Positions 11,245 through 15,909 of a stretch of DNA of 64,000 nucleotides are shown piece after piece. A program made the translations under genes and the position numbers. Numbering within the stretch: position 1 is the first letter of the stretch; each line of letters starts with the position of its first letter. The DNA lies in sequence record NC_029091.1; one strand, written 5' to 3'. Under the pieces are notes generated by a model, which saw only the letters and a program-made list of their open reading frames with translations, did no database searches and was not told the origin of the DNA. Source of the DNA: Escherichia phage APCEc01.

Positions 11245-11979
11245 ATGGAGCTAATCTTTTTAAGTGGCATCAAACGTAGTGGTAAAGACACCACTGCTGA
11301 TTACATCAATTCAAACTTTAAATCCGTAAAATACCAATTAGCATATCCAATTAAAGACGCTCTAGCAATAGCCTGGGGACGTAGGCATGCTGAAAATCCT
11401 GATGTATTCACAGAGTTGAAATACGAATACTTTGAAGGCATTGGATACGACCGTGAAACACCATTAAATCTCAATAAGTTGGATGTTATTGAATTATTGG
11501 AAGAAGCGCTAATTTATTTGCAAAGTCAATATTTACCGATTAATAATGTTAAAGTATTATCATCGTTAGAAGGTGGATATTCGTATCTAGATATTAAACC
11601 ATATGAAGCCCTGCGTGAAGCTATAAATAATATCAACGACACATGGTCAATCCGCCGTCTTATGCAAGCCCTCGGTACGGATGTTGTCGTTAATTTATTT
11701 GACCGTATGTATTGGGTTAAACTTTTTGCATTAAACTATATGGATTATATTGGAAGTGATTTCGATTACTATGTTGTGACCGATACACGCCAAGTCCATG
11801 AAATGGAAACCGCTAGAGCGATGGGTGCTACAGTTATTCATGTGGTTCGCTCTGGTACGGAATCCACCGATAAACATATTACAGAAGCTGGGTTGCCTAT
11901 TGAAGAAGGCGATTTAGTTATTACAAACGACGGCTCTTTAGAAGAGCTTTATTCTAAAATTGAAACAATCTTAAGGTAA
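11245..11979 (+). CDS. 1: deoxynucleoside monophosphate kinase gp1
   Basis: 244-aa ORF starting MELIFLSGIKRSGKDTTADYINS with P-loop GxKRSGKDT, as in T4 gp1. Confidence 0.9.
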   Translation: MELIFLSGIKRSGKDTTADYINSNFKSVKYQLAYPIKDALAIAWGRRHAENPDVFTELKYEYFEGIGYDRETPLNLNKLDVIELLEEALIYLQSQYLPINNVKVLSSLEGGYSYLDIKPYEALREAINNINDTWSIRRLMQALGTDVVVNLFDRMYWVKLFALNYMDYIGSDFDYYVVTDTRQVHEMETARAMGATVIHVVRSGTESTDKHITEAGLPIEEGDLVITNDGSLEELYSKIETILR

Positions 11980-14540: not shown

Positions 14541-14614
14541 GGCCCTGTAGCTCAATGGTTAGCAGCAGTCCCCTCATAAGGGAAAGGTTACCAGTTCGAA
14601 TCTGGTCTGGGTCA
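14541..14614 (+). tRNA. tRNA with CAT anticodon (Met, or Ile if C34 is modified)
   Basis: Cloverleaf: acceptor GGCCCTG/CTGGGTC, T-arm ACCAG-TTCGAAT-CTGGT, anticodon loop CTCATAA; no encoded CCA. Confidence 0.75.
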
Positions 14615-14620
14615 TATATT

Positions 14621-14697
<77 letters not shown>

Positions 14698-14715: not shown

Positions 14716-15060
14716 ATGAAAGGTAATATTTATCTGGTAGTTCATGATTTAACGTTTTATTTTAATGAACAGGATACAGTTATTTCCGACCGGTTGATTA
14801 ATTCGTTATATCAACACGCTGATTACGTTTATTTCCAAAATGAATTTGGCCATTGGAAGTTTCTTAAAAACCGTTCCGGGTTAACTAGTTTTGAATACTT
14901 TGACCGTAAAGACCTTTTAAACGAAATTCCATTACAACATCGGTTCCAGAAACGCGAATCACTATACTATTGTCGTCATATACCAAATGCTGAATGTGTT
15001 TATGAAGCGATTAATCTATGGCGTCGGCGTCGAGAGCAAATTGATGATATGCCAAAATAA
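14716..15060 (+). CDS. hypothetical protein
   Basis: 114-aa product from first ATG after RBS; the upstream ORF-track extension overlaps tRNA-Arg and is rejected. Confidence 0.5.
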   Translation: MKGNIYLVVHDLTFYFNEQDTVISDRLINSLYQHADYVYFQNEFGHWKFLKNRSGLTSFEYFDRKDLLNEIPLQHRFQKRESLYYCRHIPNAECVYEAINLWRRRREQIDDMPK

Positions 15061-15371
15061 GAAGCCGGGTCGCTACCGGCAAGTCGTCGGACTGATGTTC
15101 CCTGAGTAAGGACTGGTCTTAATAAATCTTTACGATTTGTTAATATCCCCTTACATCACAGCAGAAACGGCGCACAGAATTATCGATTCGAGGAAATATC
15201 TTTGTCGTAAGCCGAGTAGCGTTTTTGACGGAACGTTCGGATATGGTCGAGATATGGCCTTTTAAAAATATTGAGTAGCGTCAACTGCTTAATAACCGGG
15301 TTCGAATCCCGGCGTTTCGTACAAACACTTGCCTTAGCAGGTGGAACCCCGACAAGGTTGCCGCAAGGCTT
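15061..15371 (+). ncRNA. candidate small stable RNA region
   Basis: About 300 bp without a credible ORF, GC-rich paired segments and a tRNA-like T-arm (CCGGG-TTCGAAT-CCCGG), closed by a terminator; T4 has small stable RNAs next to its tRNAs. Confidence 0.3.
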
Positions 15372-15399
15372 AGCCCCTTCCGAAAGGTCGGGGCTTTTT
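15372..15399 (+). terminator. intrinsic terminator (GCCCC..GGGGC plus T5)
   Basis: AGCCCCTTCCGAAAGGTCGGGGCTTTTT. Confidence 0.7.
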
Positions 15400-15444
15400 G
15401 GCATAATAATAAATAGATAAGTTAATTAACTTAGGAAAAGCAAC

Positions 15445-15909
15445 ATGAAATCATACGCTGAATTTTTGACTGAACAATCTAGTTCAGATGTAAAAGCCGC
15501 TGCGATTGCAGCAATTCAAGCAGGTAAATATTCTTACAAAGACGCCTCTGATGAAGAACGTTTCCGTTTTATTAGAGATTTTAAAGCCGAAGGTTTTACT
15601 AATGCTAATACTGTTAGCCGAGTTTTTAAAAGCCTAGCTGCATCAGGTGAATTGTTCCAGAAAGCTACAGGTAAAGCACCTGCGCCAAAAACAGACCCTA
15701 AAGCAGCTCAAGAAAAAAATATCGCCAAAGGAATTATTTCTAAGTATGAAGCAATTCTTAAAGAGCTTTTAGTAATCAAAACAGAAGGCCAGAAACTGGC
15801 ACGAGCACATAGCTTCAAAGATAATCCTCACGCTCATAGCCTTGAGTATGTTGAAGATATCCAAAAACTTATTAAAGACCGTATCTGGTCTGCTAAACAA
15901 ATTAAATAA
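15445..15909 (+). CDS. internal protein candidate with capsid-targeting N-terminus
   Basis: 154-aa ORF starting MKSYAEFLTEQ. Confidence 0.65.
   Translation: MKSYAEFLTEQSSSDVKAAAIAAIQAGKYSYKDASDEERFRFIRDFKAEGFTNANTVSRVFKSLAASGELFQKATGKAPAPKTDPKAAQEKNIAKGIISKYEAILKELLVIKTEGQKLARAHSFKDNPHAHSLEYVEDIQKLIKDRIWSAKQIK

Follow-up and report, generated by a model that had tools for sequence, protein, structure and literature searches.

Orthologues of the T4 rnaD and rnaC RNAs downstream of the tRNA genes of Escherichia phage APCEc01 and their comparative structure

Organization of the locus

The window analyzed here is a stretch of 64,000 nucleotides from Escherichia phage APCEc01 (NC_029091.1), and the segment of interest lies at positions 15061–15405, downstream of two tRNA genes. 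A 1,051-bp stretch around this interval was 100% identical to Escherichia phage vB_EcoM_SCS57 and 95–99.6% identical to many T4-like coliphages, one of which (ATK47) is classed as a Mosigvirus, identifying the window by sequence as a T4-like coliphage. The interval consists of an orthologue of T4 rnaD, a 6-nt spacer, an orthologue of T4 rnaC, a structured 3' trailer, and the operon terminator, and the features of the locus are:

14541–14614 and 14621–14697, + strand: two tRNA genes (ARAGORN and Rfam)
14716–15060, + strand: ORF of 114 aa (PHROG 3355) between tRNA-Arg and rnaD, with its TAA stop codon at 15058–15060
15057–15176, + strand: rnaD orthologue (T4 species 2 RNA), 104/120 identical to T4 rnaD positions 1–118
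15177–15182, + strand: 6-nt spacer GAAUUA between rnaD and rnaC
15183–15321, + strand: rnaC orthologue (T4 species 1 RNA), 139 nt, 136/139 identical to T4 70908–71046
15322–15372, + strand: structured 3' trailer in the transcript of the tRNA operon, predicted to fold into three small hairpins (15326–15343, 15345–15359, and 15360–15369)
15373–15399, + strand: intrinsic terminator of the tRNA/rnaD/rnaC unit, with its stem at 15373–15394, a GAAA loop, and U5 at 15395–15399

In the T4 genome (NC_000866), rnaD occupies 71053–71171 directly after tRNA-Arg and is followed, after a 6-nt spacer, by rnaC at 70908–71046. The same annotations are present in RB3 and ATK47, and the latter gives identical rnaC boundaries as ncRNA rnaC. 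The ends of both RNAs in the window were transferred from the T4 annotation. The rnaD copy combined homology to the T4 gene with a position directly upstream of rnaC, and the rnaC copy was homologous to T4 over its full length and lay after the tRNAs, on the same strand, and before the terminator; this order along the + strand was the same in T4 and RB3. The next ORF begins at 15445, beyond the terminator. Approximately 800 phage records contained the rnaD/rnaC segment. The stretch carries no annotation in the APCEc01 database record, and in sister records it is wrongly labeled as hypothetical proteins or over-long tRNAs; automated pipelines label the 3' part of rnaC as a tRNA of 94–95 nt.

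The trailer and terminator made up the remaining 84 nt of the interval. The trailer was conserved in T4, T2, RB3, JS98, and AV109, with its third hairpin reading GCC-GCAA-GGC in the window and ACC-CUA-GGU in JS98 and L019, and an alternative trailer fold that would compete with the terminator stem was also possible. The terminator, which closes the unit, showed a GC-rich hairpin with an adjoining U run, and its stem covaried between the window (GCCCC/GGGGC) and JS98 (GGCCC/GGGCC). The ~1.75-kb primary transcript of T4 is the precursor of eight tRNAs plus the species I and II RNAs, and transcription is reported to end after the species I gene (PMC2330249). For T4 itself, northern blots show RNAC as a discrete stable species of about 140 nt in infected cells and as a late RNA (PMC9697503). 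No dedicated late promoter was evident in the window, where the nearest match to the T4 late promoter TATAAATA was at 11622, and a sigma-70 promoter scan gave chance-level results.

The preliminary description of this DNA had proposed a small stable RNA comparable to the pair beside the T4 tRNA cluster, and the comparative alignment with T4-like phages that it called for shows direct homology with exactly those two genes. RNA genes are thus present, although as two separate RNAs plus a trailer instead of the single candidate envisaged. Its left boundary at 15061 also had to move, as the conserved rnaD block begins at 15057/15059 (AAGAAG at 15059), overlapping the TAA stop of the upstream ORF. 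Its other sequence features were recovered, comprising a T arm (CCGGG-TTCGAAT-CCCGG) read at 15296–15312, a strong terminator found by scan and fold, and GC-rich complementary stretches such as GCCGG/CCGGC at 15064–15080, with a GC content of 0.41–0.50 in the interval vs. 0.31–0.38 in the flanks. The locus therefore very probably encodes two non-coding RNAs, orthologues of T4 rnaD and rnaC, followed by a trailer and the tRNA-operon terminator, and this confidence covers identity and structure, function excluded. The feature itself is already known from T4; what is added here is the comparative structure and chiefly a covarying pair of loops in rnaC.

Structure and covariation of rnaD and rnaC

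The structural elements of the two RNAs are:

15064–15080, + strand: rnaD 5' hairpin, GCCGG/CCGGC stem of 5 bp capped by the invariant 7-nt loop GUCGCUA
15083–15175, + strand: rnaD long irregular hairpin, closing helix 15083–15089 with 15168–15175
15184–15190 (CGAUUCG) with 15313–15319 (CGUUUCG), + strand: rnaC acceptor-like stem, 7 bp with two central U.U mismatches
15192–15259, + strand: rnaC long irregular arm occupying the place of the D arm, with ~23 stacked layers and a 6-bp hairpin at its apex
15225–15230, + strand: apical loop UUGACG of the long arm, proposed kissing partner 1, exact complement of 15279–15284
15269–15294, + strand: rnaC arm in the anticodon position, 10-bp stem with 9/10 pairs covarying
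15279–15284, + strand: 6-nt loop CGUCAA of that arm, proposed kissing partner 2, complement of 15225–15230
15296–15312, + strand: rnaC T arm CCGGG/UUCGAAU/CCCGG, third stem pair G-C in 16 and U-A in 15 sequences
15313–15321, + strand: rnaC acceptor 3' strand CGUUUCG and tail UA, with no CCA encoded

Fold z-scores were -3.35 for rnaD and -2.67 for rnaC. A covariance model of rnaC (R1), built from 28 sequences including the window copy, scored 156.8 bits at 15183–15321, a value high by construction since that copy belonged to the training set; the informative part is the absence of any second match in the window. The two folds, the ~800 records, and this lone match together indicate a signal beyond chance.

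The rnaD RNA forms a long irregular hairpin, conserved at its base and exchangeable at its tip, alongside a small 5' hairpin. Across 18 distinct sequences, 97.8% of the cells in its consensus structure were paired vs. 28–50% in slid controls, and five covarying pairs were identified by RNAalifold and pair counts. In the 5' hairpin the outer pair covaried (A-U in 12/18, G-C in 5/18, and G-U in 1/18) and the other four pairs were constant. The middle and P3 helices of the long hairpin were conserved, the former with a single switch from U-A to A-U and the latter with three covarying pairs. The apical part around 15112–15148 was hypervariable, such that the apical ~50 nt occurred in three unrelated versions (a window/T4 type, a T2 type, and a JS98/L017 type) above a nearly invariant base. 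The spacer that follows rnaD reads AAAUUA in T4; in other genera its counterpart is an AAUUA-type spacer that links the CCA end of a tRNA to rnaC, as in the Karamvirus context tRNA-Trp ...GCCA-AAUUA-UCGG. A candidate interaction of the rnaD loop GUCGCUA with UAGCG of rnaC was rejected on inspection as chance, comprising only five contiguous bp, with rnaD missing where rnaC is most diverged.

Covariation supports a tRNA-shaped four-way junction for rnaC. Pair counts were made on 33 distinct homologues aligned to the covariance model, and 91% of the cells were paired vs. 36–49% when partners were slid by 1–3 columns; two-sided changes were found in 29/52 pairs vs. 3–9 in the slid controls. These counts lean somewhat toward the structure because the alignment was fitted to the model, and a MAFFT alignment gave an agreeing picture. 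The T arm continues directly from the acceptor-like stem, in which the third pair was A-U in 15/33, G-C in 17/33, and G-U in 1/33. Both U.U mismatches were kept in 32 of the 33 sequences; the remaining one, PM2, has two U-A pairs in their place together with an A-U first pair, and encodes U-CCA at its 3' end. The long arm contained 16 pairs with two-sided changes in helices 2–4, and its sequence was largely replaced in Gelderlandvirus, Marfavirus, and PM2 with retention of the arm and of a total length of 138–141 nt.

A candidate tertiary contact is formed by the two complementary 6-nt loops of rnaC. The apical loop was UUGACG in 27/33 homologues, UUGGCG in five Marfavirus sequences, and GAGACG in PM2, where 4/6 pairs remain. 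The partner loop CGUCAA changed to CGCCAA exactly where UUGACG had become UUGGCG, in all five Marfavirus sequences, a joint replacement of A-U by G-C. The 27 homologues that keep both loops unchanged come from Tequatro-, Mosig-, Karam-, Kanagawa-, Moon-, and Gelderlandvirus and from Citrobacter phage Ursula, and include cases in which the supporting stems varied or had wholly diverged. Counted alone, the kissing helix was 99.5% paired vs. 17–50% in slid controls, and two given loops would match perfectly over 6 nt by chance in about 1 in 4,096 cases. This covariation suggests a kissing interaction between the two arms, with support that is suggestive rather than conclusive because the joint change represents a single evolutionary event in one clade. 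The geometry is compatible, as the lower long arm has 23–24 stacked layers and the apical stem (6), kissing helix (6), and anticodon-position arm (10) sum to 22. An intramolecular contact would fit these dimensions, and a dimer would be equally allowed by the pairing data.

Distribution, processing, and possible roles

The rnaC gene was found in at least eight Tevenvirinae genera, always within or at the end of a tRNA cluster. BLAST and pattern scans placed it in Tequatrovirus, Mosigvirus, Karamvirus, Kanagawavirus, Moonvirus, Gelderlandvirus, Mosugukvirus (PM2), and Marfavirus (the Klebsiella phage Marfa group) as well as in Citrobacter phage Ursula, and it was at least 95% identical over hundreds of Tequatrovirus and Mosigvirus genomes. 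Outside the T4 group rnaC was located mid-cluster, usually flanked by tRNA-Trp and tRNA-Gly (Karam-, Gelderland-, Moon-, and Mosugukvirus) and separated from the upstream tRNA CCA by a short A/U spacer of the same kind as that between rnaD and rnaC in T4. The rnaD gene was confined to the Tequatrovirus, Mosigvirus, and Dhakavirus group. Searches for more distant rnaC relatives gave no further groups with the PM2 copy as BLAST query; a loose loop-based pattern returned ~120 chance loci in IMG/VR, with zero true cases among 153 such loci by the covariance model, and a loop-agnostic pattern returned two chance matches in metagenome contigs and none in 185,579 bacterial/archaeal genomes.

Natural losses were also identified. 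In JS98 rnaD is joined straight to the trailer and rnaC is absent; other genera carry rnaC without rnaD; and AV109 carries a fusion within the T loop, to which a tRNA-Asn contributes the 5' part and rnaC the 3' end, with deletion of tRNA-Arg, the ORF, rnaD, and most of rnaC. From these cases rnaC and rnaD are separate modules, neither of which is essential for a viable isolate. The losses in AV109 and JS98 show that the RNAs are dispensable in some settings at least, and fit a weak or cis-only role as well.

The functions of T4 rnaC and rnaD were called unknown in a 2010 review, a 2022 omics paper (PMC9697503), and a 2025 experimental-evolution paper (PMC12685909), and the literature from 2010 to 2025 yielded no function, binding partner, or phenotype for either RNA. 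In the experimental-evolution study every phage line adapted to E. coli ECOR34 gained the same rnaD SNP (PMC12685909), a convergence that hints at a host-dependent role.

The host enzymes of tRNA maturation may excise both RNAs from the long tRNA-operon transcript. RNase P would see the acceptor/T-arm minihelix of rnaC, setting the rnaC 5' end and freeing the rnaD 3' end. Canonical cleavage would place the rnaC 5' end at C15184, 1 nt inside the annotated start; bacterial RNase P favors a U before the cleavage site, and a U precedes C15184. Trimming from the 3' side would halt at the terminal helices, and compact folding would let both RNAs persist. The species 1 RNA of T4 was reportedly cut by RNase III in vitro in the 1970s, which would fit its long double-stranded arm. 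Pairing of the two loops would lock the two non-tRNA arms of rnaC into a closed unit, a fit of ~23 vs. 22 layers.

With low confidence, the RNAs may function as trans-acting tRNA mimics or protein-binding RNAs that engage a host tRNA- or dsRNA-recognizing factor. Such a role would be accessory and host-dependent and not essential, as argued by the lack of both RNAs in AV109, the lack of rnaC in JS98, and the ECOR34 rnaD SNP. A more specific form of this proposal, doubtful at present, is that rnaC represents an unrecognized class of tRNA mimic, in which an RNase P-processable minihelix is combined with a closed two-helix module, locked by the 6-bp kissing helix, that would sequester the host tRNA- or dsRNA-recognizing factor. 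If so, the two-helix module, alone or as an RNA dimer, might sequester an anti-phage nuclease and confer a host-dependent advantage on T4-like phages.

Alternatively, both RNAs might act only in cis, as processing and stability signals that direct RNase P, RNase E, or RNase III to their cuts and shield the 3' end of the tRNA operon transcript, with the stable RNAs as by-products. The T4-type location at the 3' end of the operon beside the trailer and terminator, the abutment of rnaD on tRNA-Arg in T4, and the alternative trailer fold that competes with the terminator stem would suit such signals. This reading is nevertheless unlikely, given the mid-cluster position of rnaC between tRNA-Trp and tRNA-Gly in four genera, the independent occurrence of rnaC and rnaD, and a covarying loop-loop complementarity that a simple processing signal would not need.

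The tRNA-like acceptor stem and T arm and the location within tRNA clusters would also be expected of decaying tRNA pseudogenes, excised by tRNA-processing enzymes and lacking a function of their own. In T4 and RB3 the last letters of rnaD are ...GCACCA, after which comes the spacer that also follows real tRNAs, the losses in AV109 and JS98 are compatible with such an origin, and decades have passed without a known function. The reading fits poorly: constraint is strongest in parts that are not tRNA-like, namely the UUGACG and CGUCAA loops and the rnaD base, whereas neutral decay would give the reverse pattern. It is made quite improbable, in addition, by the identity of at least 95% across hundreds of Tequatrovirus and Mosigvirus genomes and by the retention of rnaC in eight genera with many compensatory changes at a steady 138–141 nt.

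That rnaC might be given a CCA end, charged with an amino acid, and taken into the translation machinery, as an aminoacylatable tRNA mimic comparable to the tmRNA domain or a plant-virus structure, is suggested by its acceptor/T-arm minihelix with a canonical T loop and by the PM2 homologue, which has a fully paired acceptor, G3.U70, and the encoded U-CCA. The window and T4-type RNAs, however, encode UACA and not NCCA, have A3-U70 or G3-C70 and the two U.U mismatches, offer no tag frame or anticodon-type 7-nt loop, and were detected by ARAGORN neither as tmRNA nor as tRNA, so that this possibility appears very slight.

A coding function is extremely improbable. Three ORFs are mechanically present (+ strand 15137–15265 and 15271–15420; - strand 15180–15404, 74 aa), and many GenBank records annotate a "hypothetical protein" across the region, the small-protein reading being assumed by many automated annotations of related phages. 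The minus-strand ORF, the sole frame tested directly, was rejected as unconserved and without a PHROG match: it had no ATG-initiated counterpart in T4, RB3, T2, T6, AR1, and others, was shortened to 33 aa in ATK47 (96.5% identical), matched no PHROG family, and was interrupted among relatives by 1-nt indels (the 138-nt rnaC variants). No ORF of the interval was conserved among relatives, in line with the earlier remark that it holds no convincing reading frame, and the protein from 15180–15404 that the preliminary description had named as grounds against its RNA reading finds no support in the comparison. Substitutions in the RNA helices were compensatory, and tRNA-Gly replaces the downstream part of these frames in other genera.

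As a finding, the locus is ordinary, a rediscovery of the T4 species 1 and 2 RNAs in a T4-like genome. Its value lies in RNAs that have been without a known function since the 1970s and in an rnaC architecture kept across at least eight genera; the minihelix and the two arms with co-varying loops suggest concrete mutants and assays for a 50-year-old question. The comparison would also support one Rfam family per RNA, ending the recurrent mis-annotation.

Comparison with known RNAs

The RNAs in the window are direct orthologues of T4 rnaC and rnaD with matching lengths and the same order of tRNA-Arg, rnaD, 6-nt spacer, rnaC, trailer, and terminator. They differ from T4 in the 114-aa ORF that parts tRNA-Arg from rnaD where the two abut in T4, in the rnaD 3' end (...GCACA vs. 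...GCACC(A) in T4), and in a 2x2 mismatch in the window terminator stem.

The preliminary description had also suggested a covariance-model search, which matched neither RNA, as Rfam 15 contains no family for rnaC or rnaD. At gathering thresholds the whole window returned the two tRNAs only, and a scan of 14900–15500 at E-values up to 10 gave chance-level matches (tRNA-Sec 16.6 bits, compared with its gathering score of 47, isrK 16.5 bits, and plastid 3' UTR 13.5 bits). A tRNA-Sec-like fold at 15228–15320 (stem ACGGAACG/CGUUUCGU), the stretch annotated by some as a tRNA of 94–95 nt, was 87.5% paired but had a covariation score below every shuffle and was broken in 6–15 sequences per pair, so pairing of the two RNA ends with each other was preferred.

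ARAGORN and the Rfam tRNA model (RF00005) detected no tRNA in 15057–15405, only the two upstream tRNAs being found. The absence of a full cloverleaf noted earlier thus holds for canonical tRNA models, although by covariation rnaC would form a four-arm, tRNA-shaped junction. Like a canonical tRNA, it lies in a tRNA gene cluster with tRNA-like spacers and has a 7-bp acceptor stem formed from both ends, leading into a 5-bp T stem with the loop UUCGAAU, both covarying, at a four-way junction. Unlike one, it has 139 nt instead of 76–90 nt, a 68-nt irregular hairpin in place of the D arm, a 10-bp arm with a 6-nt loop in the anticodon position instead of a 7-nt anticodon loop, no encoded CCA, and two conserved U.U mismatches in the acceptor.

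The tRNA-like domains of tmRNA and of the bacterial Y RNA-like YrlA and the tRNA-like structures of plant viruses each attach a non-decoding acceptor/T-arm mimic to a long irregular helix, and tRNA-processing enzymes act on all of them. The acceptor/T-arm mimic of rnaC is likewise joined to a long irregular helix. Neither ARAGORN nor Rfam identified a tmRNA, and rnaC has an A-U 3:70 pair where tmRNA has G3.U70, no CCA end, no tag ORF, and no tmRNA-type pseudoknots. The ends that form the Ro-binding stem in YrlA form the acceptor stem in rnaC. Among the rnaC homologues G3.U70 was present in PM2 only, and the RNA differed from all of these structures in having no Rfam match up to an E-value of 10. 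Substrates of RNase P have been listed (PMC11143913).

For the proposed loop contact, the closest parallels are the kissing complexes of ColE1 RNA I/RNA II and the HIV-1 dimerization site. The two loops of rnaC differ from these in belonging to one molecule and in having no known Rop-like partner protein, and resemble them as two 6-nt loops that are fully complementary and whose sole change is compensated.

Natural losses and variants of rnaC and rnaD

Comparison with related phages revealed natural losses of both rnaC and rnaD, the orthologues of the T4 species 1 and species 2 RNAs, respectively. Escherichia phage AV109 (OR352939, L034 1151-1307) carried a natural deletion chimera whose junction lay in the T loop, with the 5' part of a tRNA-Asn on one side and the rnaC 3' end plus trailer on the other; the deletion took out tRNA-Arg, the intervening ORF, and rnaD, together with most of rnaC. 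This hybrid is labelled tRNA-Asn in the AV109 record and was no longer recognised as a tRNA by ARAGORN. In phage JS98 (NC_010105, L011 701-900), rnaD was present, rnaC was entirely absent, and rnaD abutted the conserved trailer and terminator.

Where rnaC was maintained, its tRNA-like features varied between genera. The rnaC of Pectobacterium phage PM2 (NC_028940, L008 628-770) differed from every other homologue in an acceptor stem, AGGUUCG/CGAAUCU, that was fully Watson-Crick or wobble paired, contained G3.U70, and was followed by an encoded U-CCA; the complementary bases between its two loops were reduced to four. The Kanagawavirus homologues (L004, L013, L025, and L027; e.g., Enterobacter phage IME523) had the T loop UGCAUGC instead of the canonical UUCGAAU and nevertheless retained the T stem, so that the T-loop motif is not a universal requirement.

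In the rnaD hairpin, the apical half (window ~15112-15148) was compared between the window and the homologous part of L029 (T2), L015, L030, L011 (JS98), and L017. It occurred in three mutually unalignable versions (the window/T4, T2, and JS98 types) flanked by 46 and 25 nt of almost invariant sequence, and the tip looks like a part replaced in a cassette-like manner.

Possible pairing between trailer and terminator

In the 3' trailer, CCCCGAC (15347-15353) was perfectly complementary to GUCGGGG (15387-15393), which forms the 3' side of the terminator hairpin, and the terminator's own stem carried a 2x2 mismatch. When enforced, the alternative helix cost 2.2 kcal/mol compared to the terminator fold in the window and 5.1 kcal/mol for the same type of helix in T4. 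According to this folding model, the pairing could constitute a terminator/anti-terminator choice.

Annotation of the locus in public records

Parts of rnaC and rnaD were mis-annotated in public records, including as hypothetical proteins, and the stretch had no annotation in most of them. In the JS98 record neither element is annotated, rnaD included. Mis-annotated loci comprised:

L006 746-840, phage PG7 record: stretch labelled as a 95-nt 'tRNA-Met'
L033 871-964, phage G2133 record: stretch labelled as a 94-nt 'tRNA-Lys'
L029 775-1046, phage T2 record PV648363: mis-annotated rnaC/rnaD locus

Upstream tRNA genes and the 5' end of rnaD

The gene at 14541-14614 was called 'tRNA-Met (CAT)' by ARAGORN, as in most related records. 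It is probably an isoleucine tRNA, because it was identical at 73 of 74 positions to the T4 gene annotated as tRNA-Ile, the CAU anticodon of which is read as Ile after modification. The window tRNA-Arg(UCU) was of the RB3 type and far from that of T4 (identity in 44 of 82 alignment columns). It was followed by:

14716-15060: 114-aa ORF between tRNA-Arg and rnaD, PHROG 3355, similar to RB69 ORF150c

The TAA stop codon of this ORF (15058-15060) overlapped the first conserved bases of rnaD, and therefore the rnaD 5' end in the window must be excised from an mRNA and not from a tRNA trailer. In T4, tRNA-Arg and rnaD adjoin without any gap, whereas in the window the 114-aa ORF intervenes.
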